A stretch of DNA of 31,197 nucleotides from a virus (Duplodnaviria > Heunggongvirae > Uroviricota > Caudoviricetes): IMG/VR virus record IMGVR_UViG_3300028833_000002; one strand, 5' to 3'. The notes under the pieces were generated by a model that did no database searches, was not told where the DNA came from, and saw only the letters and a program-made list of their open reading frames with translations. Positions 1 through 20,414 of the stretch are shown here, in pieces; within the stretch, counting starts at the first letter, position 1; each line of letters begins with the position of its first letter. The translations under genes and the position numbers were made by a program.

Positions 1-18
1 AGTGTCATAATAATAACT

Positions 19-50
19 TCCTTCCGGTTTTAACGTCTTGAACCTGACAT
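19..50 (-). promoter_or_regulatory. Conserved structured 5' leader (copy 1 of 7) ahead of a gene that starts at position 8 and runs off the window
   Basis: Sense sequence ATGTC-AGGTTCAA-GACGT-TAAAACCGGAAGGA. Homologous copies lie at ~1022, 1785, 2629, 3446, 4278 and 4923, each just upstream of a start codon. Confidence 0.75.
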
Positions 51-112
51 TGATAATTTAAATTCTTACTCGGTGAATTTTCGTTTCCTGTTTCCCTTCA
101 CCTTATGTATAT

Positions 113-141
113 ATTATAGCATAGATTTATGTGATTGTCAA
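113..141 (-). promoter_or_regulatory. Sigma-A/sigma-70 consensus early promoter, representative of those ahead of almost every left-arm unit (e.g. 1069-1097, 15501-15529)
   Basis: TTGACA-17 bp-TATAAT with an extended TG and an upstream A/T tract. Confidence 0.9.
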
Positions 142-246
142 GTGTTTTAGAAAAATTTTTTAAAAAGTTTTATATGGAAGAAATGGAAGATTTTGGAAAG
201 TCGCCCGGGCGAAACGCCATAATTTACCAATTATGGTATGTGAAAA

Positions 247-268
247 TGCCGCCCATTTCTGAGCGGCA
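247..268 (-). terminator. Intrinsic terminator hairpin; the same hairpin is reused at ~1956, 3671 and 5082
   Basis: TGCCGC-CCATTTCTGA-GCGGCA followed by a T-rich run on the minus strand, directly downstream of a stop codon. Confidence 0.75.
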
Positions 269-273
269 CGATT

Positions 274-813
274 TTACTGATTCATATACTTTTTGTAAAG
301 GTCAAAGATAATAAGGTGTACGTTGTTTCTATTTACCTTATCGGGGTCGATGTGCTTACAACTTACAGATTTACCAGTTACGGTATTTATAAGCATTATT
401 GTAACGCCATCCCAAATTTTGTAATTGGCTGTCATAATGTAATTACTACGGCAGAATTCTCCACTTAATTCCAGTGTTGCGCCTGCGCCATATCTGCCAC
501 CACTTCCTTCTTGAATAATGTCATTTAAGTGAGAACAAACTTTATTAAACATAACTTCAACTTTATGATGTTCCATGGTACGATAAACCAGTTCCATAAA
601 TTTCTTCTTGTACCAAAAATCGGTTCTTACTGGCTTAGGACGTGGGACATTTACCAACTGGTCAGCGGGAAAACCTACAAAAACACCGGTATCTTGATTA
701 CAACCGACATAACTTTCTATACCTTTATAAGTTGTTTTTCCTATAAAAAGGTAATCACAAGCGCCCTGATGGAATGAATCTCCATTGTTTAATTCTGATA
801 TGTATTTAGTCAT
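274..813 (-). CDS. Hypothetical early protein, 179 aa; shares modules with the 1237 and 3699 proteins
   Basis: ORF with GGAGGG SD, coupled to the upstream ORF. N-terminal ISELNNGDSF resembles LSELKPHDIF in the 1237 protein. Confidence 0.8.
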   Translation of the reverse strand: MTKYISELNNGDSFHQGACDYLFIGKTTYKGIESYVGCNQDTGVFVGFPADQLVNVPRPKPVRTDFWYKKKFMELVYRTMEHHKVEVMFNKVCSHLNDIIQEGSGGRYGAGATLELSGEFCRSNYIMTANYKIWDGVTIMLINTVTGKSVSCKHIDPDKVNRNNVHLIIFDLYKKYMNQ

Positions 814-1013
814 TATTTAACCCTCCTTAATGTCATTCCATCAACAGAAATAGAGTTGATAAAACCTCTTGAAAAGCGTTTTAATGAACAGTAGGTTAAC
901 CATCTCTGCTCTTTGCTCATTAAAGAGTCAAACATTCTGATAGCTACATACTCATGAGGTGAACTATAACTACTTTTTGTCTTGTCTGCGAAAGTAATTT
1001 CATATTTTTCCAT
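813..1013 (-). CDS. Hypothetical protein, 66 aa
   Basis: ATG follows the conserved leader and SD (GGAAAGGA); own promoter at 1069-1097. Confidence 0.75.
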   Translation of the reverse strand: MEKYEITFADKTKSSYSSPHEYVAIRMFDSLMSKEQRWLTYCSLKRFSRGFINSISVDGMTLRRVK

Positions 1014-1236
1014 ATTGGTTATCCTTTCCGGTTTTATGGACTTTTGACCTGTCCTTTTCTATGTTCTTATTATACCATAGTTTAAGACGTTTGTCAATAG
1101 ATTTTTAAAAATATTTTTCGCGGCGAAATATGGTAAGATTGGTAATTTATGGAAAAACGCCCGGGCGATTTGGTAAAATTTTCCAGTTTTGGTATAAGCG
1201 AAAAGCCGCCCTCTTTCGAGAGCGACTTTAAACCTA

Positions 1237-1776
1237 TTATTCCCAAACAGTACAATCGCCTTCAAGGAATGAATAGAATTTCTTGCCTGTATCTTTGCTG
1301 TCATAACCTATATACTTTCCATCGCTTGTTGTGCCAACAAATTCATACTTGCGATCGGTATATAACCTGAAAATATCGTGCGGTTTAAGTTCACTTAATC
1401 TCTTCTTTACTGGAAACTTAGGGCGTTCCACATTATTGTACTTTGCCCAACATACGCCAAAACCAACCTTTGCACTCATGAAATCATTTAGACTGCAATA
1501 AGTGGTAACAAACTTATTACTACGAATATTAATGATACTTGTCTTACGAGTCTTTTTGTCATAAATGAAGCAAAAGTTGCCAAGACTTATATTATCCATT
1601 TGTGCATAATTGGCGCCAGTTTCCAAATCTTCAAGTAAATCAGTAATAAATTCAGCATTACAGCTATTACCGCTTGCGTCGTCTACCTTGAAATCTTCCT
1701 GTACCCTGGAATTCTTTGCCAGTGCGTTTACAAGTGAGTCAAACTGTGAGAGTGCCCAAATAGTAAAATTTTTCAT
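1237..1776 (-). CDS. Hypothetical early protein, 179 aa (paralogue family A)
   Basis: Own promoter, leader, SD and terminator. Motif C-x2-ND-x5-G-x3-CWAKY. Confidence 0.85.
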   Translation of the reverse strand: MKNFTIWALSQFDSLVNALAKNSRVQEDFKVDDASGNSCNAEFITDLLEDLETGANYAQMDNISLGNFCFIYDKKTRKTSIINIRSNKFVTTYCSLNDFMSAKVGFGVCWAKYNNVERPKFPVKKRLSELKPHDIFRLYTDRKYEFVGTTSDGKYIGYDSKDTGKKFYSFLEGDCTVWE

Positions 1777-1985
1777 AGTAAATATCCTTCCGGTTTTTAG
1801 GACTTGAACCTGTCCTTTGTTGTTTTATCTTATGTATATATTATAGCACGAAATCGCGGCAATGTCAATACCTTTTAAAAAAATTTTTATGGTATTTAAT
1901 GGAAAAACGCCCGGGCAGATTGGTAAAAATTACCATCTCAATGGTAAATGGAAAAGCCGCCCATTTCTGAGCGACTTTAGATTTA

Positions 1986-2135
1986 TTACTTTGTAAATCC
2001 CATATCAATTTTTGCCTGTTTTCTTGCCTTCGCACGTTCATTAAGGGCGGTGAGGTAGGCAATCGCCTCCTCCCTTGTTAAAAGATAATGCTTACCCTTT
2101 TTGACAACCGTCATTCCTTTTTTTATCTCTGCCAT
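1986..2135 (-). CDS. Small basic protein, 49 aa (MAEIKKGMTVVKKGKHYLLTREEAIAYLTALNERAKARKQAKIDMGFTK); not in the ORF track
   Basis: ATG 2 nt after the stop of 2138..2620, AGGGAG SD, TAA just before the terminator. Confidence 0.7.
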   Translation of the reverse strand: MAEIKKGMTVVKKGKHYLLTREEAIAYLTALNERAKARKQAKIDMGFTK

Positions 2136-2137
2136 GA

Positions 2138-2620
2138 TTACATCTCCCTTGTAAATACTACTCTATAATTGAAGTATGCTACCTTAAAAACACCATTTTC
2201 AACCAGTTTATCCATTACAGTCCTAAACATGTCGGGGTCGAAACCTATACGATGTGTGTATCTTACATGGGACGCTAAGCTATTCATAAGACTTGACAAG
2301 ATGTACATGCTACCGACTTCTGTATTTTCGATAAGGGCGTTCATGTAAACTTCGTACTTTGTCTTACGATAGTTATTTCTTGCCACACGAGTTTTAGCTC
2401 TCTTAACAGCTCTAACTGCGCTGACAATATCTTCCACAGCGTCTTCGACATTATTGATGTCGTCGATGTCCATCTGTGCCATAGCTTCTGTAGCTTTTTT
2501 TACCTTTACCAGTTCCTGGCAAACGTCTGCCTTCATAGCTTCGTCATTGAGTTCTACTGAAGCTCTATAAGCATAAGGTGAAAAGCGTTCTACTTCTTTA
2601 GGGTTTGAATTTCTAAACAT
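2138..2620 (-). CDS. Hypothetical protein with N-terminal helices and a possible C-terminal winged helix (family B)
   Basis: Own promoter and leader. C-terminal F-x4-DKLVENG pattern shared with 2951..3436. Confidence 0.8.
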   Translation of the reverse strand: MFRNSNPKEVERFSPYAYRASVELNDEAMKADVCQELVKVKKATEAMAQMDIDDINNVEDAVEDIVSAVRAVKRAKTRVARNNYRKTKYEVYMNALIENTEVGSMYILSSLMNSLASHVRYTHRIGFDPDMFRTVMDKLVENGVFKVAYFNYRVVFTREM

Positions 2621-2950
2621 GGTAAATATCCTTTCCGGTTTTAACGTCTTATTACCTGACGATAGTAATTAATTTTCTTAGGGTTTAGGTCGTTTCCCTT
2701 ACCCTGTAATTATATTATATCATATCGGCGGGTATTTGTCAACACTTTTTCTAAAAAAATTTAAAAATATTTTTATGGTAAATATGGAAAATGTTGGTAA
2801 AACGCCCGGGCAAACTGGAAAATTTTTCTATTTATGGATAAAAAAGAATGGACGGTAAAAACCGTCCAAACTTTTAAGAAACAACCATAGGAGGTATGGA
2901 AATATTGGGATGGGACTTTTTGGTGGGAAATCCCTCAGAAACCCATGAGA

Positions 2951-3436
2951 TTAAAAATCTTCAATTAATGAGTAAATCATACCATATTCAGCGCTATACT
3001 GTGTCATAATTTTTCCGGCATTTACAAGTCTATCAATGCACACTTCAAAAACGTGAGTATGTCGGAGAGCTTTGCTGTCAAAATTATGGTCTTTTTTACT
3101 ATAGTCCATACTAAATTCAAGAAAATCAAGTAAATTCCCCTTAGAATACCACTTTCCAGCCTCCATATTTCCAGCAAGCATAGATTCGTATTCACCTAAA
3201 TAGGTTTCATTTCTCTTTACTGCCTTCGCCTTCTTAGCTGAACAGCTGATGTCATAACAGAGCTTAGCCAGTGTGTCAAAATCTTCCTCATTGATAGCGT
3301 TCAGCTCAGTCATAGCTTCCTTGATATTTTTGTTAATATCTGCCATTGACTTCTTTGTCTTTAAAAAGACTTCTGAATGTTTACGAAGTGCAGAGATTTC
3401 AAGTGCCTTTAATGTGATGTTTGATGTTCTTTTCAT
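2951..3436 (-). CDS. Hypothetical protein, paralogue of 2138..2620 (family B)
   Basis: Own promoter and leader. Shares MxRxSN, AKx(1-2)VxRN, NxExGxxY and F-x4-DRLVNAG. Confidence 0.8.
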   Translation of the reverse strand: MKRTSNITLKALEISALRKHSEVFLKTKKSMADINKNIKEAMTELNAINEEDFDTLAKLCYDISCSAKKAKAVKRNETYLGEYESMLAGNMEAGKWYSKGNLLDFLEFSMDYSKKDHNFDSKALRHTHVFEVCIDRLVNAGKIMTQYSAEYGMIYSLIEDF

Positions 3437-3698
3437 GGTAATAGTCCTTCCGGTTTTTAAGTCTTTTAACCTGACTTTAGATTGTTTTAAGGGGGTTTTC
3501 TTTATCCCTCACCTTATGTATATATTATAGCATAGAATAAGACAGTTGTCAATACTTTTTTTGAAAAATTTTTAAAAATATTTTTCGCGGCGAAATGTGG
3601 TAGAACTACCAATTTCTGGTAAAACGCCCGGGCGATTTGGTAAAATTTTCCATTAATGGCATAAAAGAACTGCCGCCCATTTCTGAGCGGCAGAACTG

Positions 3699-4268
3699 TT
3701 AAAGATTTGTATGGTCTACTACGTCTATTAAAGCGAATCTATGTTTCATTACCACATTTGCGGTGCTATGGTAGAACGACTTTTTTGTTCCATTCCATGA
3801 CATTAATGTAACGGCTACATCTCTACTATCTCCTATATTTGGTACTATTGACAACACTATGAAGTTATCGTTCTTGCCAAGATTAACCACATCGCCTACC
3901 TTTAAATTACATACCTTAATTGTAGTTCTAATCATTGGTATTTCTTTTCCCGTATATCGTGCCCAAGCGAGAGCAAGTCCGAGTTTATAATCCCTAATGT
4001 CGTTAAGATTATTAAGACGTGCTTCTCCTCTTCTGCGGGTTCTCGTATTGTAAATTATTGTATCACCGTTTTCTTTTACTGTGATGATAAAATTGCCATA
4101 AACAACAGATGTTCCCAACTTCCATTCAATACCACGAATCGCGCCACGTGCTTTCCCGTCAGAATCTTTACGGTATTTTGATGTCATTGAGCTCATAAAG
4201 TTGTCAAGACTTGTTATCTTGTCATCAACCCACTGGTCAAACTGTCTTTTGTTGTTACAAATTATCAT
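3699..4268 (-). CDS. Hypothetical protein, 189 aa (family A); start revised to ATG 4268
   Basis: ATG 4268 follows the leader and SD. The longer ORF-track start runs through the promoter and repeat. Motif NDIRDYKLGLALAWARY. Confidence 0.8.
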   Translation of the reverse strand: MIICNNKRQFDQWVDDKITSLDNFMSSMTSKYRKDSDGKARGAIRGIEWKLGTSVVYGNFIITVKENGDTIIYNTRTRRRGEARLNNLNDIRDYKLGLALAWARYTGKEIPMIRTTIKVCNLKVGDVVNLGKNDNFIVLSIVPNIGDSRDVAVTLMSWNGTKKSFYHSTANVVMKHRFALIDVVDHTNL

Positions 4269-4460
4269 AGTTAAATTCCTTTCCGGTTTTAGGGACTTGA
4301 ACCTGTCCTTTACTGTAATTATATTATACCACACTTTGCGGCACTTGTCAACACTTTTTAAAAAATTTTTATTGGTATTTTCTGGAAAAACGCCCGGGCA
4401 AATTTCCAAAATCTACCAATTATGGAATATAAGAAAACCACCCCGAAGGGTGGCAATTTC

Positions 4461-4913
4461 TTACATTACTGGATTAACATAAACGGTATGCTTAATGTGG
4501 TAAGTTCTTCCTTTTTCATCTGTGGCAACGATAAAACCGTCATCATCAAGATATTCAGTCGTGTATACCCTGTTTTCATAGATAAATTTTTCAGCCGGCA
4601 TAAGGAAACCTGCTCTAAACCATACTTTGTTAAAAGCCTTCGGCGTGTACTGCACGCCCATGGCTCTCAGTGCAACCAGTATGTAGCCAATGTTCATGTC
4701 ATAAATGTCATTGCTGTTGCACTTAGCTGTGAATACTTTTACATCACCGTTTTTGCTTGTGCGAATCAGCACGCTTGTCACAGCTTCCTCCGTCACGTCA
4801 CAGTTATCATCGAAGCTAAAGGAAAGATTTGGATGCTTTTCCTTGTAGGCGCCAAAATCTGCGAATACTGTCTTTACGAGTTTGTTCATGTCTGAGTAGT
4901 TGTAATTTTTCAT
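4461..4913 (-). CDS. Hypothetical protein, 150 aa (family A-related)
   Basis: Own promoter and leader. Motif AKCNSNDIYDMNIG. Confidence 0.8.
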   Translation of the reverse strand: MKNYNYSDMNKLVKTVFADFGAYKEKHPNLSFSFDDNCDVTEEAVTSVLIRTSKNGDVKVFTAKCNSNDIYDMNIGYILVALRAMGVQYTPKAFNKVWFRAGFLMPAEKFIYENRVYTTEYLDDDGFIVATDEKGRTYHIKHTVYVNPVM

Positions 4914-5124
4914 AGTTATTATTCCTTCCGGTTTTAGGGACTTGAACCTGTCCTTTTCTATACTCTTATTATATCATATCCCGCCGCAAATGTCAACACC
5001 TTTTTGAAAAAAATTTTTTGGTATTTTTTGGAAAAACGCCCGGGCACTTTTCCACAATTTTCCAGTATTACCACAAAAGGAAACCGCCCATTTCTGAGCG
5101 GTTCCCATGGAGGTATATATGGTA

Positions 5125-5487
5125 TTAAGATAATTTCTTTGTTAAGCGGTTTTTAAATTCGATTACATTGAGTTCTTCCTTTAAATCCCATTCTACACTC
5201 TCACATATTCTGCGAAGTTTAATCCATACGCAACCAGCAGTGAGTTCTAAAATGTGGTCATCATCCTCAAATCTTTCCATAGCTTCAATGATAGGTTCAT
5301 AGTTTTTGCGGAACAGGTCTGCGTAATATTCCGGTGAGCCGTCCGGTTCTTCCATGTAATCATCAGCAAGATTGTCAATGACATCCCAAGCTCTCGTGAC
5401 ATCATCGGGTGTATGGCTATTGTCATCATTGATAACTGCTTTAAAAGCATTGATTAAGTCGTAAGTATGTTTAATTCTTAAATCCAT
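5125..5487 (-). CDS. Acidic hypothetical protein, 120 aa
   Basis: GAAAGGA SD before ATG 5487; promoter at ~5535-5562; terminator at 5082-5103. Confidence 0.8.
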   Translation of the reverse strand: MDLRIKHTYDLINAFKAVINDDNSHTPDDVTRAWDVIDNLADDYMEEPDGSPEYYADLFRKNYEPIIEAMERFEDDDHILELTAGCVWIKLRRICESVEWDLKEELNVIEFKNRLTKKLS

Positions 5488-5643
5488 AAAATCAAGTCCT
5501 TTCAAGTGGTTGTTTCTTTTACCCTGTAATTATATTATACCACAACGGGGTATAAAAGTCAATACCTTTTTAAAAAATTTTTTATTGGAAATTTATGGAA
5601 AAACGTCCGGGCAAGTTGGTAGAAAATACCATAAAAATTATGC

Positions 5644-5672
5644 TTGACAATCGCGGCGAAATGTGATATAAT
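5644..5672 (+). promoter_or_regulatory. Plus-strand consensus promoter with the TCGCGGCGAAA motif in its spacer
   Basis: TTGACA 5644-5649, 17-bp spacer containing ATCGCGGCGAAAT, TATAAT 5667-5672. Confidence 0.85.
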
Positions 5673-5699
5673 ATAAATATAGAAAGGATGGTAGTTATT

Positions 5700-6047
5700 A
5701 TGGATACTAAAATAACATGGATAGAAAAAATATTATTGGTATTATTCACACTTGTTATAATATGGTCACTTATTATTGAAATTGATGTTGCGGTTAAATA
5801 TGCAAAAGCACCTACAGTAACTTTTGATTCCCAGTGGATGGAAAGTTTTGCGGAAGAAAATGGAGAAGATGTCATCTACTGGGAAATAGACTGGATAGGT
5901 GATGATGTGTGCCGTAAATATGAATACACAACACGCAAAAAAACAAAAATCCATATTTACTATGAATGTGAAGATTATTCCAGTGGTTTTGAAGTGGTAA
6001 TGAACCCACAAACTGGAAGATGCACAATTTGGGAAAGCGGACATTAA
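5700..6047 (+). CDS. Membrane-anchored hypothetical protein (inverted unit)
   Basis: GAAAGGA SD; N-terminal hydrophobic helix ILLVLFTLVIIWSLII; terminator-like hairpin plus T tract at ~6038-6064. Confidence 0.8.
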   Translation: MDTKITWIEKILLVLFTLVIIWSLIIEIDVAVKYAKAPTVTFDSQWMESFAEENGEDVIYWEIDWIGDDVCRKYEYTTRKKTKIHIYYECEDYSSGFEVVMNPQTGRCTIWESGH

Positions 6048-6201
6048 GTCCGTTTTCTTTTTTTATCCTCAAATGGTAAATTTTACCAAAACGCCCGGGC
6101 AAATTTCCAAATCTTACCATTTTCGCGGCAGAAGAAAAAGGCTGGAAATTATATCCAACCTTTTCCTTTTTATAGAAACAAACAATGGAGGTGTGAAAAT
6201 G

Positions 6202-6531
6202 TCAAATATCTGCCATAAAGTAGATTTGTGGTAAAAATCCACAATATGGATTTGCTCGTCTTAGTTCCTTTAGTAAAGAGTTGAAAACGTCCATATCTTC
6301 ACTCTGAGAATTTTCATTAATAAGTGCATTGAGTTCGTCAAATGAAAATAAGCACTGGTGCATTTTGTTAAATGGATCTTTATCGTCTTCTCCGAACATT
6401 ACCAGTGGAACGCCTAAAAAGGCTTGTGATGAATTTGGTTTTTCATACCAAAAGCCGGGAAAGTATTCCTTAATCCAGTCGGCTTTTTCTAAACTGTTAG
6501 AAACCTTTACGCCAAAAATGAAACCATACAT
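6202..6531 (-). CDS. Hypothetical protein, 109 aa
   Basis: AGGAGG SD; second gene of its unit. Confidence 0.8.
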   Translation of the reverse strand: MYGFIFGVKVSNSLEKADWIKEYFPGFWYEKPNSSQAFLGVPLVMFGEDDKDPFNKMHQCLFSFDELNALINENSQSEDMDVFNSLLKELRRANPYCGFLPQIYFMADI

Positions 6532-6532
6532 A

Positions 6533-6673
6533 TTAAGCCCTCCTTAAAAGTGCCGGAAAGATATTCCAGCTCGCATACTGCTGTGTTGTTAAATTATGGA
6601 GATTTACATCTATGATAGATGCTAAAATCCATACAAGTATTATTACACAAATAACTGTTAAAATCTTTTTCAT
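6533..6673 (-). CDS. Small membrane protein, 46 aa (MKKILTVICVIILVWILASIIDVNLHNLTTQQYASWNIFPALLRRA); not in the ORF track
   Basis: AGGGGAG SD, promoter at ~6699-6727, single TM-like segment, stop abuts the next ATG. Confidence 0.75.
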   Translation of the reverse strand: MKKILTVICVIILVWILASIIDVNLHNLTTQQYASWNIFPALLRRA

Positions 6674-6839
6674 ATTAACTCCCCTTTTCTATATTCTTAT
6701 TATACTACATTTTAAAGAGAATGTCAATAGTTTTTCTAAAAATTTTTTATGGTATTTTATGGAAAAACGCCCGGGCAAATTGGTAAAATATGGTAATTAT
6801 GGAGTAAACAAAAGAGCGGCAATAAATGCCGCCCATGGA

Positions 6840-7169
6840 TTATTCTTCCGCTGCCAAAAATTTCTCCCAGTAGTTTACTATTCTTTTATATTCTTCTGTA
6901 TGGAGTTTTAGTGTCTGTATTTTTCCCTCCATGTAGCAATACCATTCATGAGAATCAACTTCCGGATTATCATAATGGTCAAAATCGGAATCGTAAATAT
7001 CTCCAAATCTTACAAAATCATTCCACTCATCTAAATCGCCAACAATTCGGAATATGCTATCATAGATTAAATGGAAAATAGTGTCAAGAGTCTGCCCTTT
7101 TAGTTCTACTCTTGATGTTTCAATTTCCTTAGTCTGATGATTAAACCATCCAGTTTCTATTATTACCAT
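6840..7169 (-). CDS. Acidic hypothetical protein, 109 aa
   Basis: GGAGGA SD; second gene of its unit. Confidence 0.8.
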   Translation of the reverse strand: MVIIETGWFNHQTKEIETSRVELKGQTLDTIFHLIYDSIFRIVGDLDEWNDFVRFGDIYDSDFDHYDNPEVDSHEWYCYMEGKIQTLKLHTEEYKRIVNYWEKFLAAEE

Positions 7170-7171
7170 AA

Positions 7172-7369
7172 TTATTCCTCCTTACCAAGAACTTCCTCTT
7201 CGTATTCAAGCTCATTACAATATTCATTGTAGCTGTATTCAAGGTTGTAGTTCCAGTCATAGTTGCCGTCTAACAGGTCATCCTTGTGAAGACAAAAGAG
7301 TCTTACACAGTCAGCTTCTGATAAATTTTCACCTAACATTGTTGCATATTCTTCTCTTGATGGTAACAT
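7172..7369 (-). CDS. Small, very acidic protein, 65 aa
   Basis: GGAGG SD precedes ATG 7369; consensus promoter at ~7425-7453. Confidence 0.75.
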   Translation of the reverse strand: MLPSREEYATMLGENLSEADCVRLFCLHKDDLLDGNYDWNYNLEYSYNEYCNELEYEEEVLGKEE

Positions 7370-7584
7370 ATAACATTCCTCCATTTTCTTTGTGGTATCG
7401 GTGTTTCCTTTACCTTATGTTTATATTATATCATATCCCGCCGTAAATGTCAAGTGTTTTTAAAAAATTTTTTAATTGGTAATTTATGGAAAAACGCCCG
7501 GGCAAATTTCCAATATTTACCATTTATACCACAAAAAGAGTGGCGACGTTTCCGCCGCCAAGTTCTACCATATTTGTATTTATC

Positions 7585-7875
7585 TTAGTCTTTTATCTCT
7601 GCAATGTTTGGCGTATTTTTCCGCTGTTCCATTAAAAATGCCGCACAAAGAACTAATTTCACGGCAAAGTGTATTGCCTCACGTGTATCTGTCATAATTT
7701 CTGACACATTGTTTTCAGTAATCTTGATTGTTACCTGATTCTCCTTTTCTTTCCAATCAAGAACTTCAATTGAGCTATGTGTAGCTTCTGAGATTGAGTT
7801 AAATTTTGTAATTGCGTCATAAATCTGCTGAGTGATTGGTCTTGTGAAGTTTGCGTTTACCATTTTACTTGTCAT
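7585..7875 (-). CDS. Hypothetical protein, 96 aa
   Basis: GGAGGT SD, own promoter and terminator. Confidence 0.8.
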   Translation of the reverse strand: MTSKMVNANFTRPITQQIYDAITKFNSISEATHSSIEVLDWKEKENQVTIKITENNVSEIMTDTREAIHFAVKLVLCAAFLMEQRKNTPNIAEIKD

Positions 7876-8155
7876 AATTATTACCTCCGTATCTTAGCGG
7901 GTATCGGCGTTTCCTTTACCCTATGTTTATATTATACCACAGTTTATGATGTTTGTCAACACTTTTTTAAAAAAATTTTTCGGCATTGGAAGAAATGGAA
8001 ATATATGGAAAAACGCCCGGGCAATTTGGTAGAAAATGGTGCACAGTTTCGCGGCGAAAGATTTGTGTATTTTGCGAATAGTATTTATTATGGAACTATG
8101 CTATAATATATATAGTGAAAGAAACAAATAAGCCGATAAGGCGGGAGGAATTAAT

Positions 8156-8320
8156 ATGACTGATTATGAAAAGTGCATGAAATACTGCGAAGAGGAAAGT
8201 ATTGGAACGGTAATAAATGGAGATAAAACTGTAGTAAGTGCCTATGTAATGGGAACTCCGGTTCTTGAATGGCATTTTTCCAAAGATGGAAAATTAATGG
8301 AAACTGTTAATTACAACTAA
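8156..8320 (+). CDS. Small protein, 54 aa (MTDYEKCMKYC...EWHFSKDGKLMETVNYN); not in the ORF track
   Basis: GGGAGG SD after a GCC-GATAA-GGC hairpin; TGCTATAAT upstream; paralogous to the next ORF. Confidence 0.75.
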   Translation: MTDYEKCMKYCEEESIGTVINGDKTVVSAYVMGTPVLEWHFSKDGKLMETVNYN

Positions 8321-8333
8321 GGAGGAAAATGGT

Positions 8334-8510
8334 ATGAGCGATAAAAACTTAATCACCGGACTTGCCAAAAAGTGGGGTAAGTTTTTTACCTCAGAATCAG
8401 ACGGTGAAAACGGAACTTTAGTTAGAATTCACGACACAAAATATAATGGCACAGAATTCCACTTCTCAGAAGACGGGGAACTTCTTGAATACTGGGCATT
8501 CAATATGTAA
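8334..8510 (+). CDS. Small protein, 58 aa (MSDKNLITG...EFHFSEDGELLEYWAFNM); not in the ORF track
   Basis: AGGAGG SD; terminator GCGACC..GGTCGC plus T tract at ~8517-8548. Confidence 0.75.
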   Translation: MSDKNLITGLAKKWGKFFTSESDGENGTLVRIHDTKYNGTEFHFSEDGELLEYWAFNM

Positions 8511-8675
8511 TATAATGCGACCTCAGAAATGGGGTCGCCCTTTTATTTGGTAGAACTGGAAAATTCTGGAAAATCGCCCGGGCAAATTTCTATAAATTAC
8601 CATTCATGGAATAAGAAAACACCGCCAAATTAATGGCGGCATCTCCCATGGAGGTATATGTCAAATTATTGGAAA

Positions 8676-9053
8676 TTACTTTAAGTTGCTTGCATAGATA
8701 AACATTTTACCAAGTATATCATTGCTACCTTTCTGATACCTATTGATAAGTTCTTTAACAGAAAGTAAACCAAAATCAGAATATACTAACTGTTCTGTTT
8801 TATATAAAGTGTTGCCTTCTTCATCTGAATATTCTGAAACTATCAAATCATCCATTGACATGGACAATTCTATATTTTTCAAATATTCTTCTAAGAAATC
8901 CCTGTTAAGAGTTGCTAAAGAAAAGAAGTTCTTTGTTTCACAAAGATATTCCACATGTGCCCATAACGCACTATCATCAATGTCATCAAAATGATGATAT
9001 GTGAATCCCTCTAAATCAAAATCGAATGTTTCAATGGTTAATAACATTTTCAT
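8676..9053 (-). CDS. Acidic hypothetical protein, 125 aa
   Basis: AGGAGG SD, promoter at ~9101-9129, terminator at 8621-8641. Confidence 0.8.
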   Translation of the reverse strand: MKMLLTIETFDFDLEGFTYHHFDDIDDSALWAHVEYLCETKNFFSLATLNRDFLEEYLKNIELSMSMDDLIVSEYSDEEGNTLYKTEQLVYSDFGLLSVKELINRYQKGSNDILGKMFIYASNLK

Positions 9054-9359
9054 AGTAATTCCTCCTGCCCTATGGGCGTTGTCATTTCTTCTATGATTAT
9101 ATTATACCACTTTCAAGGGGTTCTGTCAACAGTTTTCGCTGCAAAAAGTTGTGGCTCTTTTTTGTGTAAATTCACCAATAGACGTAGCTCCCATACAATG
9201 TCATAATTGGAAAATTTTCCCTCAAAATTCATTATACATATAATACCACAACTTTCACTATTTGTCAACACTTCCAGTTTTTGGAAAATCGCCCGGGCAA
9301 ATTACCATATTTTACCATTAATGGGACAAATAAAAAGGAGTGCCGAAGCACTCCCAGTT

Positions 9360-9674
9360 TCATATCTGTTCTGCTAAATCGTGGCAAACCAACATAGCTG
9401 CTAAATATTTGGCAGCATATGGGTGATTAGGAACTTTTGCCAGCTCGCCCGGTAAACGTCTGTTAACCCAGTCTACCACCTCAGCTCCAGCCCTGATGTC
9501 ATCATCGAGATAGTCGAGAACCTCATCAACAGCTTCATCGAGATAGTCGTTGTCAACCGTAAAACGATTGGCAAGATTTGGGATAGCTTTAAGGGCTTCG
9601 TGGTTCTCAGCTTCCCACGCCGCGAACGCATGCATAACTCTTGCTGTAAAAACATACCAAGACATATCTTTCAT
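9360..9674 (-). CDS. Hypothetical protein, 104 aa
   Basis: GGAGGT SD before ATG 9674; terminator GGAGTG..CACTCC. Confidence 0.8.
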   Translation of the reverse strand: MKDMSWYVFTARVMHAFAAWEAENHEALKAIPNLANRFTVDNDYLDEAVDEVLDYLDDDIRAGAEVVDWVNRRLPGELAKVPNHPYAAKYLAAMLVCHDLAEQI

Positions 9675-9923
9675 ACCAATTACCTCCATAGTTTAGTGGT
9701 TTCCTTTATTCTGTAATTATATTATACCATACCCTATTATAAAAGTCAATAGTTTTTTAATGAAATGTTATACAAATTCGCAGTGAAATTTTTGTATACT
9801 ATGCTATTGGTAATATATGGAAAATCGCCCGGGCAAATTTCCAAAATATGGAAATAATGGAGTAAAAGAAAAACTGGGTAAAAATACCCAGTCTTTCAAG
9901 AAACAAACACATGAGGTTGGAAA

Positions 9924-10196
9924 TTACTTTTCTTTTACAGTGATGGAAATGTCAACCAGTTCAAAATCAATTGGGTCTTCTCTGCCAAAATCCCATATTG
10001 CGCCATGGACTTCTTCTACATCAATTCCACATTTTTCTTCAAAATCAAACATGATTTTATCAGAAACTTTAAGACAAAGATGTTTGTCTTCCGGATGGAT
10101 GAAAGTAGTGCCCACTGGCATTAAATCCCACTGTTCAGTTGTCATAGGTCTTACTTCACGTTCAATTGTTATAGTTGTTAATTCCTTCTTAGTCAT
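9924..10196 (-). CDS. Hypothetical protein, 90 aa
   Basis: AGGAGGT SD; second gene of its unit. Confidence 0.8.
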   Translation of the reverse strand: MTKKELTTITIEREVRPMTTEQWDLMPVGTTFIHPEDKHLCLKVSDKIMFDFEEKCGIDVEEVHGAIWDFGREDPIDFELVDISITVKEK

Positions 10197-10215
10197 AGCT
10201 TATTACCTCCTAAAA

Positions 10216-10305
10216 TTATCCAAAAATTACGTTTACTACAGCTATAATAAGCGCTGTTAATCCTGCTGCCTGAGCAAAAGCCTTAATGTCAACAAAATTT
10301 TTCAT
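10216..10305 (-). CDS. Hydrophobic peptide, 29 aa (MKNFVDIKAFAQAAGLTALIIAVVNVIFG); not in the ORF track
   Basis: GGAGGT SD at normal spacing; first gene after a consensus promoter; stop just before the next SD. Confidence 0.7.
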   Translation of the reverse strand: MKNFVDIKAFAQAAGLTALIIAVVNVIFG

Positions 10306-10546
10306 ATTATTTACCTCCATATTCTATTAGGTTTTCCCTTACCCTGTAATTATATTATACCATACCCCTAAGAGAATGTCAACACCTTTTTAATAAAATA
10401 CTACACAAATTCGCAGCGAAATTTTTGTGCAATCTGCTATTTGGTAGAAACTGGAAAATCGCCCGGGCAAATTTCCATAATTTACCATTTTGCGCACGGG
10501 CAAATTACCAAACACCTCCATTTTACTGGAAGTGCTTGGCTTGAAA

Positions 10547-10849
10547 TTATTCCCAGTATTTACTTAATTTTTCTGAGTAAAGCTGACCCTTAAATATACC
10601 ATCATAGAAAAAACCTACCAGAGGTTCAAATATTTCCATTTCTTCCTCCGTTAATCCTGAGAAGTCGCCTGAGAGTGCTTTTTCTACGTCCTTTACAGCA
10701 CCTTCCCAGCACTCATCGAAGTCGTCCATGCTGAGCTTTGCCATTCTTTTCTTACAGATAGGACTCGCAAATTTGGCGCAAGTTGACTCAGTTACAAGGC
10801 TTTCAATTTCTTTGCTCATTCCGATAATTCTTTCTACTGCCATTGTCAT
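10547..10849 (-). CDS. Acidic hypothetical protein, 100 aa
   Basis: GGAGGT SD before ATG 10849; own promoter. Confidence 0.8.
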   Translation of the reverse strand: MTMAVERIIGMSKEIESLVTESTCAKFASPICKKRMAKLSMDDFDECWEGAVKDVEKALSGDFSGLTEEEMEIFEPLVGFFYDGIFKGQLYSEKLSKYWE

Positions 10850-11010
10850 AATAATTACCTCCATAGATATACCATTTGTTTCCTAAAGGGTTTTGTTTCC
10901 CTTACCTTATGTTTATATTATATCATAGTTTAGTATGAATGTCAACACTTTTTTAAAAATTTTTTATTGTCATATTGCACAAATTTCGCCGCGAAAATTC
11001 TATCAACACC

Positions 11011-11080
11011 ATGGCAACTTGGAAATAATTGGAAAATCGCCCGGGATGGCAACTTGGAAATAATTGGAAAATCGCCCGGG
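11011..11080 (+). repeat. Exact 35-bp tandem duplication ending in the boundary-repeat core
   Basis: ATGGCAACTTGGAAATAATTGGAAAATCGCCCGGG twice (11011-11045 and 11046-11080). Confidence 0.95.
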
Positions 11081-11169
11081 CAAATTACCATAAAATGGAA
11101 ATTAAGGAATAAACGAAAAACCGCCCAAAATTTGGACGGTCTTTCAAATTTATGGAGGTGTTGGAAATA

Positions 11170-11385
11170 TCATGCACGGTGGTAGACATTGTAAATTGTA
11201 TCAAGAATGTCCGCCATTTCCCTTTTATTTACAGGTGGAGAAAGCCTGTCAATGCCGCCAAATTCTCCCTTTTTTACAAGAGAAACGGCACCGTTTGCGT
11301 ATTCCAGCTGATAGTAGTCTCTGCCAGTTTTTGCCTTTAAGTTTTCAAGTTTGATGTTGAGTAAAGTTTTAGTAATAATTCCCAT
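11170..11385 (-). CDS. Hypothetical protein, 71 aa
   Basis: GAGGT SD, promoter, terminator. Confidence 0.75.
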   Translation of the reverse strand: MGIITKTLLNIKLENLKAKTGRDYYQLEYANGAVSLVKKGEFGGIDRLSPPVNKREMADILDTIYNVYHRA

Positions 11386-11642
11386 AATAATATACCTCTT
11401 TCCATTATTACCCTTTCGGGTTGTTTCTTTGTTTCTATGATTATATTATATCATATTGGCGGGAACTTGTCAACACTTTTTTTGAAAAAATTTTATTGTG
11501 ATATTATACAAAATCGCGGCGAAATTTTTGTATGGTTTGTTATTGGAAGAAACTGGAAAATCGCCCGGGCAATTTTCCATAAAATGGTAATCCTACCACA
11601 AATAGAATGGAAGCCTTGTTTTACCAAGACTTCCAAATTTAC

Positions 11643-11849
11643 TCAATAAGCCCATTCTCTGTCATTGGAATATAATTCCCATCTTGGGTCTTCCTTTAAT
11701 TTCCTTGTAGTTATGGTATAATCTTCCTCACTCTTAATTTTTCCCATTTCTTTGTAATAATCTACCATTTTAGGAACATCTTCCTCATAATAACATCTTA
11801 TTGGAAACATTTCACCTTTTATCCTTATTTCCCAAACCTTTGCCATCAT
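11643..11849 (-). CDS. Hypothetical protein, 68 aa
   Basis: GAAAGGA SD after a GCC-GATA-GGC hairpin; promoter; terminator at 11609-11634. Confidence 0.75.
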   Translation of the reverse strand: MMAKVWEIRIKGEMFPIRCYYEEDVPKMVDYYKEMGKIKSEEDYTITTRKLKEDPRWELYSNDREWAY

Positions 11850-12101
11850 AATTACCAATCCTTTCCGCCTATCGGCTTTCCTGTTTGTTTCTATGATTAT
11901 ATTATACCATAGATTTATTAGAATGTCAATACATTTTCAGAAAAAATTTATTGTGATATTGCACAAATTTCGCCGCGAAAATTCTACTGGTAAATTATGG
12001 AAAATCGCCCGGGCAAATTTCCAAAAAATGGTAATTAAGGAGTAAACAGAAAGGAAGCCTTGTTTTACCAAGACTTCCAATCTTTGTTATTTTAGGAGAA
12101 A

Positions 12102-12515
12102 TTAGATATAATTCCAGTTTTCTGCCATTTTCTTAAATTCTTCCATTTCTTCCTTGATAAAAGTATTAAAGTTGTCAATATTTGCTATTGCCTTGAATTT
12201 GGAATTAAATACTATTGCTTCCTCATTACCCCAATCACAATGTGGGTCATCCATAAACTTCCAACCGTTTTCTTCCAAAACCTCTTTAAAGTGGGCAATA
12301 TCTACCAAATAACATTCAAAAGCATATATGTCAGCTCTGTTATAATCTGGCATAAAATCCACATTTGTGTCCTTTACAGCTTCTACCATGGCAAGGATTT
12401 CCTCAGCTGGTGTATCACGGGTAATAGTGAATTCCCTGATAATACCATATTTTTCATAGGTTCTGCCGTCTTCTTCATCCACAAAATCTGTCCAGTCAAA
12501 AAGTCTAAATTTCAT
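12102..12515 (-). CDS. Acidic hypothetical protein, 137 aa
   Basis: GGAGGT SD before ATG 12515; terminator at 12053-12078 identical to the one at 11609-11634. Confidence 0.8.
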   Translation of the reverse strand: MKFRLFDWTDFVDEEDGRTYEKYGIIREFTITRDTPAEEILAMVEAVKDTNVDFMPDYNRADIYAFECYLVDIAHFKEVLEENGWKFMDDPHCDWGNEEAIVFNSKFKAIANIDNFNTFIKEEMEEFKKMAENWNYI

Positions 12516-13036
12516 ACAAATTACCTCCATAATTATACCAATTGTTTCCTTTGGGGTTCTTTCGTTCCCCTTACCTTATGTTATTATTATATCATAGAAT
12601 AGGGTATTTGTCAATAGTTTTTCTAAAAAATTTTTGTTGTGATATTACACAAACTAAGGGTAGACTTTTTATGCAACATTTTTCTCCTACTTTCCCATTC
12701 TATACCAGCTCTCATTTTTACTTTTTTACCATATTTTTCCGGTGGAATTTACCATGGAGATTTATAACATAAATAACAATAATTGGAAACTCCTCACTTA
12801 TGGTATAATTGGTAAATTATGGAAAATCGCCCGGGCAAATTTCCACATATTACCAATACATATAATAAACATATTCTACCATAATTTTCTATAAAAGTAA
12901 ATACTTAAACTCCAACTACCAAAAAATGTTTTCACACAACTTTCACATAACTATCACAATTCTATCACATAAATCCATTATAATAATAACAATGAAAGAA
13001 GCAAACACTACGGGCAATTTGGAAAGGAATGGTATT

Positions 13037-13498
13037 ATGAACATCTACAAAGAAATGGAAAAAGAAAACTATCTCAACAGATACAAAAAGTTAGTTTTCA
13101 CTGAAAATCAAATCTATGGTTTCCCTTATGAGTCAAATATCTACATCTACATCACAAAGAATGAATACTTTGACTTCTATCTTAACAAAAGCACTAAGAA
13201 TGACTCAAAAACTCTTGACTGGCGACCGACTAAGAAGTCAATCGAAAGAATGTTAGAAAAAGCGACAATTCTTTGCACAGTAGAAGAATTTGAACAGAAT
13301 TACTGCTACGATAACAACGGAAGAACATTAGAAAAAATGTTATTCACAAAGTTATTAAATCAGACTTATACACCGGACACAGTAAGATTTGATAAAGGCG
13401 CAGACATTACAATTAACAATGTTCCTTATAGTGTAAAATATCTAAGGGGCAGACTCAGTGATATGAAAACTATCGAAACCGCAGAAAATGAAAAATAA
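13037..13498 (+). CDS. Putative PD-(D/E)xK restriction-endonuclease-like protein, paralogue of 14927..15448
   Basis: GGAAAGGA SD before ATG 13037. Motif LCTVEEFE..DNNGRTLE..GAD..YSVK. The fold call is inference. Confidence 0.6.
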   Translation: MNIYKEMEKENYLNRYKKLVFTENQIYGFPYESNIYIYITKNEYFDFYLNKSTKNDSKTLDWRPTKKSIERMLEKATILCTVEEFEQNYCYDNNGRTLEKMLFTKLLNQTYTPDTVRFDKGADITINNVPYSVKYLRGRLSDMKTIETAENEK

Positions 13499-13594
13499 TT
13501 TAACATTAAGCCGCCAAGTAATTGGCGGTTCCTTTTTGCCGTGAAGATTGGAATATATTGGGAAATCGCGGCGAAAAATTAAGAAATGAATCTC

Positions 13595-13623
13595 TTTACT
13601 TTTTTGTAAAAACATGGTATAAT
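13595..13623 (+). promoter_or_regulatory. Plus-strand promoter with no downstream SD-led ORF
   Basis: TTTACT-17 bp-TATAAT with an extended TG. Confidence 0.6.
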
Positions 13624-13947
13624 AGTTTTAGAAAGTTAAGAATACCAATAAATTAGGGTTCTTACCAAATCTCACAAATTTGGAAAAAGTTTCCGGGTGG
13701 AAGCCAGCTCCCATAAACTTCCATTTTTGGTAAATTTTTCCAAAAAGTGCAGCTCCCATTTTCTTCCATTTATGGAAAAATTTCCCTCAAACGTAGCTCC
13801 CATAATCTTCCATATATGGAAGAATCTTCCCATCCTAGCTCTCCTAGAATCTGGTAAAACTGGTAAAATCTGGAGGAATTTACAGGGATATATCTCCAGC
13901 ATAGGAAAAATGTGGAAAATTGCCCGGACAATTTTCCAATATATACC

Positions 13948-14196
13948 GAACTTCTAAGCGGTTCAGGTGAACCGATTTCACCGCTTTAAAGCGCTAAAGC
14001 GCCGGCACGGGCAATTATCCAAATTATGGACTTTACCACGGTAAAGCGCAACACTTTAAAGCGCTAAAGCGGCACGGGCAATTTTCCATATTATGGACTT
14101 TACCGCGGTAAAGCGCAACACTTTAAAGCGCTAAAGCGGCACGGGCAATTTTCCATATTCTGCATGAACTTTTAAGCGGTTCATGTGAACCGATTT
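13948..14196. repeat. ~67-bp tandem repeat (about 2.6 copies, 13984-14159) bracketed by 31-bp direct repeats containing a CGGTTCA-NN-TGAACCG palindrome
   Basis: Units contain CTTTAAAGCGCTAAAGCG, GCACGGGCAATT and the palindrome CTTTACC(A/G)CGGTAAAG. Flanks at 13948-13978 and 14166-14196. Confidence 0.9.
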
Positions 14197-14254
14197 TATT
14201 GAAAAGTGAACCGCCTTGATAATCGACGGAACTTTTCAAGGCGGTTTTATTAAA

Positions 14255-14533
14255 TTACTCAATAATGTATTTGTCACTTTTTGTTTGTTCTGTAAAGCGG
14301 TTTACTCTTGTTTGTATGTAGTCTTTTGAGATAGTCCCAAAGTTTTTTATTGTTGCGATTTCAAGAGTGATAATATTTTTATCGTCAAGTGTTTTTCTAT
14401 ACTCATAAATTTTATCATCGGCTTGTTTTCTGCTACCGTCGCACATTTTAATTAAAACAATGTTTTTTGCTTTATCCTTGATAATGCAAAAGCCGATAAA
14501 AGCACCTTTAAAATTAAAATCCTTAATACTCAT
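14255..14533 (-). CDS. Hypothetical protein, 92 aa
   Basis: GAGGT SD; last gene of a three-gene unit. Confidence 0.75.
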   Translation of the reverse strand: MSIKDFNFKGAFIGFCIIKDKAKNIVLIKMCDGSRKQADDKIYEYRKTLDDKNIITLEIATIKNFGTISKDYIQTRVNRFTEQTKSDKYIIE

Positions 14534-14613
14534 AATTATTATACCTCATTTCTAAATTTTCGGCACTTGTGAGGATTTTTCAACCCTCACAAAATACCAT
14601 TCTGATTTACTGA

Positions 14614-14850
14614 TTAATAAGTTTCATATATTGCTGTACACTGTCTATAAGCACTATCTTTACTAATAACGATATTTGAGTCAATTGTTTCATAACCTCT
14701 ATCCAAAGCACTCATGACATACCAAAACGCCTCCGGCATTGACTCACCTGTTTTATACTTGTATGTTTTGTTTGTGCCTAAAATCCTGTATTCTGTATAA
14801 CTGTTTTCGCTGTTTGTCATGTCTGTAAAGTAATTAGCTAAAATTTTCAT
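14614..14850 (-). CDS. Hypothetical protein, 78 aa
   Basis: GGAGGT SD before ATG 14850. Confidence 0.75.
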   Translation of the reverse strand: MKILANYFTDMTNSENSYTEYRILGTNKTYKYKTGESMPEAFWYVMSALDRGYETIDSNIVISKDSAYRQCTAIYETY

Positions 14851-14926
14851 AATTATTACCTCCGTAAATGTTAACTTGTTTTTTATTGTGTGGTTAGTGC
14901 TCTGACCACTAACCACATCATTCTAA

Positions 14927-15448
14927 TTACATACAATATTCATTGTATAACGCTGTTGCTTTTTCGCTATCAATCTTTATTGTGCTGTTATCAGTGAATT
15001 TTATCTGATATACTCCAAAATCACCGTTTTCTTTGTGGTTTTCGTTTGATTTCTTGTATTCAACTCCAAAGAACTCAAAGATAACCCTTTCGGCAGTATA
15101 GCCGTTATTATCTTTATACTCTGCTTTTTTAGCTTCAAATTCAGCCGCTGAACACAGCTGAATGTCATGGGATAAATCCCATTTTTTAATATCCTTCTTA
15201 CCACATCTGATACGAAGCGCTGGCATGCCGTCGGAGCTAAAACCGCTATAAACTGCGATAGCTTCCTTAGTCCAATCAAGCTCATGAGCCCACATTTTGC
15301 CAGCGTTTTCGTAAACCATGATAAAATCACGGCTGAAAATCTCATCAAGGTAAGCGTCAAGGTATGCCTTGATGTAATCAGTGTGAACGTTTGTCTTCTC
15401 TGAGTTTCTGAACTTGAAACCTGTTGATGTTTTAAAAATTAAATCCAT
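14927..15448 (-). CDS. Putative PD-(D/E)xK restriction-endonuclease-like protein
   Basis: GGGAGGT SD, promoter at 15501-15529. Motif LCSAAEFE..DNNGYTAE..GD..YQIK (E..D..QxK). The fold call is inference. Confidence 0.6.
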   Translation of the reverse strand: MDLIFKTSTGFKFRNSEKTNVHTDYIKAYLDAYLDEIFSRDFIMVYENAGKMWAHELDWTKEAIAVYSGFSSDGMPALRIRCGKKDIKKWDLSHDIQLCSAAEFEAKKAEYKDNNGYTAERVIFEFFGVEYKKSNENHKENGDFGVYQIKFTDNSTIKIDSEKATALYNEYCM

Positions 15449-18248: not shown

Positions 18249-18251
18249 GCC

Positions 18252-20409: not shown

Positions 20410-20414
20410 TAGGG

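Follow-up and report, generated by a model that had tools for sequence, protein, structure and literature searches.

A putative symmetric operator in the early-gene array of an uncultured TAG-recoded phage

Organization of the array

We analyzed a 31,197-bp stretch of viral DNA, hereafter the window (bases 705-31901 of the 180,579-bp IMG/VR virus record IMGVR_UViG_3300028833_000002; 36.9% G+C), in which a short palindromic core, GCCCGGGC, recurs between small genes. The core occurred 19 times exactly, from position 203 to 12829, against 0.10 occurrences expected from dinucleotide-preserving shuffles, which bears out an earlier proposal, made from the letters of the window, that its abundance is beyond chance. 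A 127-bp terminal repeat indicates that the record was assembled as a circle, and the whole genome held 31 perfect copies, all within 171660 to 13533 across the assembly junction. We also located sites with a weight matrix built from the flanks alone, with the eight core positions masked, and scanned both strands of the genome. This matrix recovered exactly 33 sites, namely the 31 perfect copies and two with one core mismatch (window 5605 and 13922), and zero sites beyond these on either genome strand. All 33 fell in genome 171660 to 14626, spanning the junction. Outside the array block and its 240-bp left border, CCCGGG occurred a single time (genome 73710).

The array covers genome 171660..180579 plus 1..14650 (~22.5 kb), and the window contains its right-hand two thirds. 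Its roughly 30 early genes, mostly on the minus strand, are divided among small units that are each self-contained, and sites lie 444-1055 bp apart within the window. Read on the gene-sense (minus) strand, a unit consists of a terminator, a 46-bp two-fold symmetric element centered on the core (the dyad), an A/T tract, a promoter, a conserved leader, and one or two small open reading frames (ORFs). The original prediction had counted 22 repeats bounding units of 0.44-1.1 kb. That count corresponds to the 19 exact cores, the one-mismatch cores at 5605 and 13922, and a truncated tandem copy at 11039, and the unit lengths agree with those measured. The region it described as free of the core (15.9-31 kb) contained no site, and the further copies that it suggested seeking in the rest of the genome exist, as the array with its 33 sites runs past the left end of the window. 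Its description of every interval as holding a terminator, one or two small genes, a leader and a consensus promoter fits most units, not every one. The repeat was also described as directional; the element is in fact two-fold symmetric over 46 bp, and the terminator and promoter alone give direction.

The features below are in window coordinates; dyads were located by core match plus flank matrix and are unstranded unless noted.

1..13948, minus strand: the part of the array in the window (core and flank-matrix scans)
184..229: dyad, core 203-210, GCCCGGGC
1140..1185: dyad, core 1159-1166
1890..1935: dyad, core 1909-1916
2785..2830: dyad, core 2804-2811
3607..3652: dyad, core 3626-3633
4373..4418: dyad, core 4392-4399
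5019..5064: dyad, core 5038-5045
5586..5631: dyad, one-mismatch core GTCCGGGC (plus strand, 5605-5612), from which promoters diverge (flank matrix)
6074..6119: dyad, core 6093-6100, on which terminators converge from both sides (core match, terminator scan)
6750..6795: dyad, core 6769-6776
7477..7522: dyad, core 7496-7503
7996..8041: dyad, core 8015-8022
8557..8602: dyad, core 8576-8583
9272..9317: dyad, core 9291-9298
9808..9853: dyad, core 9827-9834
10442..10487: dyad, core 10461-10468
11031..11100: dyad, core 11074-11081, after a truncated tandem copy (GCCCGGGA at 11039) (core match)
11544..11589: dyad, core 11563-11570
11988..12033: dyad, core 12007-12014
12810..12855: dyad, core 12829-12836
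13903..13948: outermost dyad, one-mismatch core GCCCGGAC (plus strand, 13922-13929) (flank matrix)
113..12614, minus strand: 16 perfect TTGACA-17-TATAAT promoters, one per unit, 15 of the 16 with TG before the -10; first hexamers at 141, 1097, 1868, 2742, 3552, 4351, 4996, 6727, 7453, 7959, 9129, 10382, 10945, 11473, 11929 and 12614
5586..6119, plus strand: inverted unit with a core at both ends; perfect promoter 5644-5672, ORF 5688-6047 (119 aa), terminator 6031-6059
7996..8602, plus strand: inverted unit with a core at both ends; ORFs 8156-8320 and 8334-8510, terminator 8517-8538
12810..13948, plus strand: inverted head unit with a core at both ends; p190 ORF 12926-13498 (likely start 13034), terminator 13509-13530
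14927..15448, minus strand: p173, a paralogue of p190 at the array head; perfect promoter of its own (15529-15501), dyad absent

The core at window 5605, mismatched here, is perfect in the close strain L259.

Anatomy of the dyad

Around each core, phased TGG/CCA boxes form a 46-bp dyad centered on it. On the gene-sense strand, TGG lay at -19 and -9 and CCA at +14 and +24, and the boxes stood 11.5 and 21.5 bp from the core center on both sides. With this geometry the 46-bp dyad would be contacted on a single helix face. Further boxes or a second palindrome, TTTCGCSGCGAAA, sometimes occurred between the CCA boxes and the A/T tract. Upstream, the terminator was a GC-rich hairpin whose T-run spanned positions -38 to -30 relative to the core; the hairpin plus T-run occupied -45 to -30 in most copies, and the dyad started ~10 nt past the T-tract of the preceding terminator.

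Across 74 copies from three genomes, the invariant dyad positions were -19/-18/-17, -15, -9, the core, +10 to +12, +14 to +16 and +24 to +26. When sites were defined by their flanks, the core was perfect at 31/33, 29/30, 17/17 and 15/15 of them in four genomes, against drifting flanks. An invariant core within variable flanks points to selection on the core and not to homogenization of the whole repeat. Some boxes were strand-flipped in place (TGGTA for TACCA), a sign that the flanks may be read indirectly or through the minor groove.

Ten copies folded as single-stranded DNA (ssDNA) gave -3.8 to -10.4 kcal/mol, and 8/10 had z above -1.5, no better than shuffles. A cruciform or RNA hairpin is unlikely, as the GC stem would span just 2-4 bp round a CCGG loop and most copies fold like shuffles.

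Promoter classes and spacing

Genome-wide, the array contained 28 perfect minus-strand TTGACA promoters with the consensus TTGACA-17-TRTGnTATAAT, and an A/T tract lay ahead of each. An independent scan of window 1-16000 found 18 promoters matching at 12/12 positions and 29 terminator-like sites versus 9.8 expected. Relative to the -35 hexamer, the dyad center lay about 45, 65 or 76 bp upstream. Among copies from three genomes, the gap from core end to -35 was non-random, with two main classes, 39-42 nt in 29/66 and 60-62 nt in 20/66. The relative L247 had center-to--35 steps of 53.5, 63, 73.5 and 84 bp, with a period-10.5 concentration of R = 0.90.

Perfect TTGACA promoters were near-exclusive to the array. 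A second class of ~25 host-type promoters, found at 121-167 kb (plus strand) and 65-91 kb (minus strand), had TTGACT or TTTACA at -35, an A/T-rich spacer and the same TRTGnTATAAT extended -10, and a dyad accompanied none of them. These promoters probably belong to delayed-early or middle units. Their lack of a dyad indicates that the palindrome marks one promoter class and not promoters generally.

A protein bound at the dyad might serve mainly as a transcription insulator, that is, a roadblock past each terminator among ~30 strong units, with any promoter effect secondary. The upstream T-tract at -38 to -30 and the outer box from -19 recurred in nearly all copies, so a polymerase paused at the U-tract would abut the bound protein, and cores between convergent terminators do occur (window 6093). 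We regard this as improbable. The spacing to the -35 hexamer is quantized as well, a terminator is missing upstream of several sites (genome 8719, 11165 and 13533), and the terminators already possess GC-rich stems of up to 15 pairs plus T-runs.

Several units (window 1100-12700; e.g., 1116-1128, 8047-8060 and 11915-11930) had a second palindrome, TTTCGC(G/C)GCGAAA, between dyad and promoter. It often adjoined a TATAAT-like word and supplied much of the longer dyad-to-promoter spacing classes. The 5' leaders fell into a few near-identical families (window 19-4953, genome 172-180 kb), for example GGACAGGTTCAAGTCC then CTAAAACCGGAAGGA, with identity between units extending up to 269 bp.

Replacement of the core in related lineages

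Relatives were sought by DNA pattern in IMG/VR and JGI metagenomes, where the fragments G001 and G002 and the G001 source contig were among the matches listed. Other relatives were reached through protein look-ups only, and nucleotide searches of the phage collection gave no match. The two IMG/VR fragments carried the array, with 29 perfect cores in G001 and 30 sites in G002. A conserved 241-aa array protein, used as a marker, had 178 homologues in public assemblies. GCCCGGGC was retained at 17/17 sites in L240 (marker 91% identical) and 15/15 in L246 (marker 70%), and again the flanks drifted.

Distant relatives, with markers 45-51% identical, had the same layout of terminator, boxes, palindrome, boxes, A/T tract and perfect promoter, built around other palindromes. 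The core in L247, L249 and L250 was CCGTTATAACGG, an AT-containing 12-bp palindrome present in 23, 22 and 18 copies alongside TGAAYA/TTCAT boxes. The contigs of L247 and L249 measure 181 and 180 kb. In L251/L252 it was GGCCGGCC, with 25 copies and different flanks. G002 was a mosaic: 14 of its sites had GCCCGGGC, and at the other 16 ordinary TGGAAA flanks enclosed GGCCGGCC-type cores, mostly on units non-orthologous to G001. The mosaic stretches (L037+L038, 13995-20000 and 23400-26560) combine G001-like units, 97-99% identical, with foreign units that have GGCCGGCC/GACCGGCC cores, and one site has a hybrid core, GGCCGGGC. IMG/VR yielded no parent phage whose array has variant cores throughout on TGGAAA flanks, and no comparable palindrome array occurred in phAss-1 at 1-50 kb and 116-136 kb or in Enterococcus phage EF1 at 46.6-77.2 kb.

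A conserved layout with lineage-specific symmetric cores argues for a co-evolving, sequence-specific DNA-binding protein. It also bears on a protein-free explanation, under which phased A/T tracts with GG/CC steps would curve the DNA round host RNA polymerase and boost the promoter, and the GC core would be a clamp or topological boundary. Upstream curved DNA stimulates Bacillus phage promoters, and boxes every 10-11 bp with strand flips that cause no shift are typical of bendability signals. We nevertheless consider a purely structural role very unlikely. The 8-mer is invariant while its flanks drift, other host-type promoters of the same genome do without the element, and the use of CCGTTATAACGG or GGCCGGCC in other lineages fits specific recognition; such swapped palindromes are hard to reconcile with a generic GC clamp.

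Record names (STEW19-1 and TONG22-1 for L249 and L251; JGI samples 3300028591/3300028832/3300028914) suggest that many of the relatives derive from rumen or gut metagenome assemblies. A homologue of the 241-aa protein was also encoded on a 68-kb contig of a genome assembly (L258; NCBI GCA_001899395.1, MOYD01000024.1), together with seven perfect promoters and 14 TTCAACTTTTCAAC direct repeats, with BrxL and DNA-methylase genes close by.

Unit shuffling and crossovers at the core

Junction evidence rests on G001 versus G002 (97-99% identical where orthologous) and on this genome versus L259. Low-identity BLAST block ends (this genome versus G001 or L240) were excluded as junctions, since paralogous similarity of the regulatory regions stretches alignments to the core by itself. 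Unit order was 16-17-18-19-20 in G001, 16-17-X-19-Y-Z-18-20 in G002 and 16-17-X'-19-18-18'-20 in this genome, which differed from G001 by two more unit moves. G002 carried an extra 373-bp unit with a core at both ends, and the parental flanks split exactly there. Conversely, a G001 unit was missing from G002 (deletion J3), and the switch between parental flanks fell inside GCCCGGGCGTTT. Three junctions of reordered units sat at or a few nt from cores. By our count from the alignments, ~7 of ~17 G001/G002 junctions lay ≤12 nt from a core, a zone that makes up ~4% of the array; of the remainder, one was in the right boxes, three in a promoter or leader and six inside genes. Gene order among relatives is therefore not fixed, and the whole-unit insertion and deletion cross inside the core, as expected if units are gained, lost and reordered there in the way first proposed.

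Three units in this genome were inverted and core-bounded (window 5605-6093, 8015-8576 and 12829-13922). All had plus-strand ORFs and terminators, and the first had a perfect plus-strand promoter. Two of the inverted genes had homologues in sense orientation in distant lineages, and the p190 homologue was in sense orientation in L251. Inversion needs exchange inside a symmetric sequence, and the dyad is the only provider of one. Directional parts of the module recombine too: L259, 97.6-99.5% identical to this phage, differed from it by a single ORF-body swap with junctions at the gene start and the terminator.

In random unit pairs, the longest identical run took in the core in just 25-37% of cases. 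At the c-left junction, neighboring promoter regions shared a 24-bp identical run, yet the junction was at the core. Together these indicate that the core is used somewhat more than simple homology predicts. In G002, where a G001-type unit meets a variant-core unit, crossovers fell 2-7 nt outside the core, which argues for homology search and not for a fixed cut.

The absence of a visible recombinase from the window, noted in the original prediction, extends to the rest of the genome. Six-frame searches of the complete genome and of G001/G002 found no tyrosine recombinase (PF00589), with positive controls, and those of the complete genome found no serine recombinase (PF00239). Recombination and repair domains that the genome does encode are a Sak4-like AAA_24 protein, a RecJ-like exonuclease and an ATP-dependent ligase. 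Given these functions and the lack of a conventional recombinase, we favor relaxed homologous recombination as the driver of unit shuffling, with a dedicated enzyme as a minority possibility. Relaxed homologous recombination is also the mechanism proposed for the promoter-early stem-loop (PeSL) cassettes of T4-type phages (PMC2839356, PMC4122927).

Candidates for a dedicated enzyme are p190 and p173. These paralogues occupy the same place, heading the array, in G001, G002 and L251 (a GGCCGGCC lineage), and their family had ~65 cluster representatives in viral metagenomes with invariant G96, E100, D124 and K135. The predicted model of p190 (pLDDT 95.8) places E100 on a helix, D124 at a strand start and K135 on a strand, a modeled helix-strand-strand layout that resembles PD-(D/E)xK nucleases, whose defining core is alpha-beta-beta-beta-alpha with E...D...(D/E/Q)xK. 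p190 had no Pfam match and no solved-structure match (Foldseek versus PDB E above 0.2; VIA best Z 3.7), and its best structural matches in Foldseek, VIA-wide and ESM Atlas searches were three unnamed viral clusters.

If the palindrome were a dedicated recombination site, a new phage enzyme would cut or exchange strands at the 8-bp core and move whole units. The insertion with a core at both ends, the precise deletion, and the reordering and inversions that map to the core would all follow, as would the c-left junction and the low rate at which random pairs share the core in their longest run. The conservation of the p190/p173 family at the head of arrays with different cores, the nuclease-like arrangement of its invariant residues in the model, and the ligase encoded by the phage also suit this explanation. 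We judge it unlikely all the same: tyrosine and serine recombinases are absent from the complete genome, the confident p190 model matches no solved nuclease or other fold, mixed-core crossovers fall outside the core as homology search predicts, ORF-only swaps use the leader and terminator and not the core, and the promoter spacing and restriction to a single promoter class are left unexplained. Less likely still is its broader form, a cut-and-rejoin or strand-exchange system, perhaps p190/p173, with its own core and specificity in each lineage, which would be an integrase-free counterpart of integrons in lytic phages.

Between p190 and the next minus-strand genes (window 13595-14247) lay nested repeats with degenerate GCACGGGC-type cores. 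The counterpart in L251 (4506-4758) had four GGCCGGCC cores alternating with GTTAGCATATGCTAAC palindromes.

The palindrome as a probable operator and crossover point

Fixed helical spacing to one promoter class, together with unrelated palindromes at the same place in other lineages, points to a protein-binding regulatory site. With a probability of roughly 0.55, we propose that GCCCGGGC is the center of a two-fold symmetric operator for a putative lineage-specific DNA-binding factor and is also a preferred crossover point. A transcription-factor site had been named in the original prediction as an alternative only, and the helical spacing and palindrome replacement favor it. The earlier proposal of a recombination site stands in part: crossovers do occur at the core, and recombination is probably not what keeps the site, given that spacing and the unrelated palindromes elsewhere.

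The factor, probably a dimer or tetramer, would wrap or bend the phased flanks. Its operator would tag one promoter class, the ~30 maximal-strength immediate-early promoters of the host-takeover array, with the operator center held on a fixed helix face about 45, 65 or 76 bp upstream of the -35. The most likely job would be joint switch-off of the array promoters after the early phase, and by analogy with phi29 p4 at strong early promoters, we infer that repression would work through contacting or trapping RNA polymerase from upstream. The bound protein may also stop read-through from the preceding unit. The core and inner flanks, being symmetric and the sole stretch common to every unit, would become the preferred crossover of homology-driven recombination, which could insert, delete, reorder and invert whole units, as PeSLs do in T4-type phages. 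For the factor itself, p173 and p190 are candidates, linked to the palindrome by gene position.

Several observations weigh against this proposal. No array protein tested (20 against Pfam, 10 against PHROGs) gave a DNA-binding family. The HTH_36 gene next to the array tail finds no support as the source of the factor, since its product shows 43-52% identity among same-core lineages and the gene is absent beside the G001/G002 arrays. Base-specific contacts sit less well with the strand flips of the boxes than do indirect readout or bendability. All copies derive from one another, and part of the quantized spacing may come from that shared history and from gain or loss of ~10-bp boxes. Consensus promoters with UP-like tracts need no activator. 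The L255-257 lineage has a promoter array with the palindrome in some units only, which makes the element dispensable for unit function. Finally, the 12-bp core run at J3 was the longest identity between the two parents, so homology-driven exchange would choose it in any case and this junction cannot tell passive from active recombination.

Early host-takeover regions hold the fastest-changing genes of phages, anti-defense genes included. To our knowledge, their regulation and reshuffling are known in detail for T4-type coliphages only. An unrelated, uncultured, TAG-recoded lineage here follows the same cassette logic, with one symmetric operator-like element per unit. If one factor binds all sites, it would be a master switch for ~30 strong promoters, and immediate-early genes could be found from sequence alone. 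Where operator and crossover point coincide, a newly gained unit would automatically come under the same control, which offers a simple means of timing acquired genes correctly. The palindrome sets GCCCGGGC, GGCCGGCC and CCGTTATAACGG may lead to the binding protein via a protein that changes in step with the core.

Comparison with known systems

PeSL cassettes occur in the T4-type phages RB49/phi1, T4/PST and KVP40/nt-1 (PMC2839356, PMC4122927). Mobile promoter/terminator cassettes shuffled by recombination are thus a known kind of system, and the array is not wholly undescribed in kind, where a previously undescribed modular system had been inferred. Both share a repeated composite in which an effective terminator accompanies a consensus early promoter of host type with an AT-rich tract upstream, placed ahead of small unknown-function genes in variable regions, with no dedicated recombinase known. 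In both, the motif contains the endpoints of insertions, deletions and replacements that distinguish close relatives (here in the core, right boxes, promoter/leader and terminator). The novelty lies in an operator-like element, invariant and symmetric, that each unit carries, that lineages replace with their own, and at which crossover and inversion take place. This separate 46-bp element stands between terminator and promoter, with whole-unit crossovers on or beside its 8-bp center, whereas PeSL stem-loops lie within or beside the promoter; and it is exchanged for unrelated palindromes in sister lineages. The array is also one contiguous 22.5-kb block, co-oriented bar three inverted units, where PeSL regions are scattered, and its carrier is a TAG-recoded phAss-1 relative with SPbeta-like virion genes, probably infecting Firmicutes, and not a T4-type myovirus.

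The p4 sites of phi29 are A-tract inverted repeats at which early promoters are repressed (PMC3100819). Like the dyad, they are imperfect inverted repeats, recognized in part by way of A-tracts, upstream of or over sigma-A promoters in a Firmicute phage; the 46-bp dyad has A/T tracts and a center at least ~45 bp upstream of the -35. Phi29 has four sites in one control region versus 33 here, one per unit, and the p4 site (CTTTTT-15 bp-AAAATG) has no GC core. The p4 family was not among the families listed in general Pfam scans of 110 non-structural ORFs (25 of 57 listed in one scan), which included no search aimed at p4.

Integron attC arrays likewise consist of small gene units with imperfect palindromes between them, at which whole units come, go and change order. 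Here, however, there is no IntI and no tyrosine or serine recombinase, ssDNA folding is weak (-4 to -10 kcal/mol), and inversions occur. In agreement with the original prediction, no copy has a GTTRRRY core, and each unit has its own consensus promoter as well as a terminator, in contrast to promoterless cassettes on one common promoter. We rejected an integron/attC reading on the lack of an integrase or resolvase, the weak single-strand folding and the units' own promoters.

In plasmid RK2 (KorB OB sites) and mycobacteriophage L5 (stoperators), one short site recurs 12-30 times, close to or at numerous promoters or intergenic gaps of a single replicon, for coordinated silencing. L5 stoperators are asymmetric and tied to a temperate repressor, whereas the site here is symmetric, confined to a single early block and set at fixed helical spacing ahead of every promoter in it. 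This phage, unlike the KorB system, encodes no ParB_N domain (PF02195; no six-frame match in the complete genome), and a protein-loading site, as also proposed earlier, was rejected in its ParB/parS form on that ground.

Phage relationships and gene content

The major capsid protein was nearest to those of human-fecal phage contigs, phAss-1 (34% identity), Enterococcus phages EF1/VRE9 and the large Bacillus phages Kirov, PBC2 and Thrax3, and virion genes matched SPbeta Yon families. The extended -10 (TRTGn) and the nearest relatives suggest a Firmicute host. Late (virion) ORFs were full-length only with TAG as a sense codon (window 15900-28613; genome 16.6-58.5 kb and 91-120 kb). With TAG read as sense, the portal reaches 527 aa with 6 TAGs and another protein 2387 aa with 30; array genes contained none. 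TAG recoding has been seen in the phAss-1 group (PMC10607447).

Elsewhere, the genome encoded Pol III alpha, gyrase A/B, NrdD, ThyX, a GIY-YIG/NUMOD1 endonuclease and several helix-turn-helix proteins, among them three HTH_36 proteins and an HTH_24 protein. Among the array and head-region proteins searched (20 against Pfam, 10 against PHROGs), the only matches were to an NT5C-like deoxyribonucleotidase and to phrog_20187 (unknown function). The NT5C-like 5'(3')-deoxyribonucleotidase gene lies to the left of the window (genome 175031-175474, minus strand) and shares 93% identity with its G001 counterpart. A reminiscent case is dmp, a pre-early gene of phage T5.

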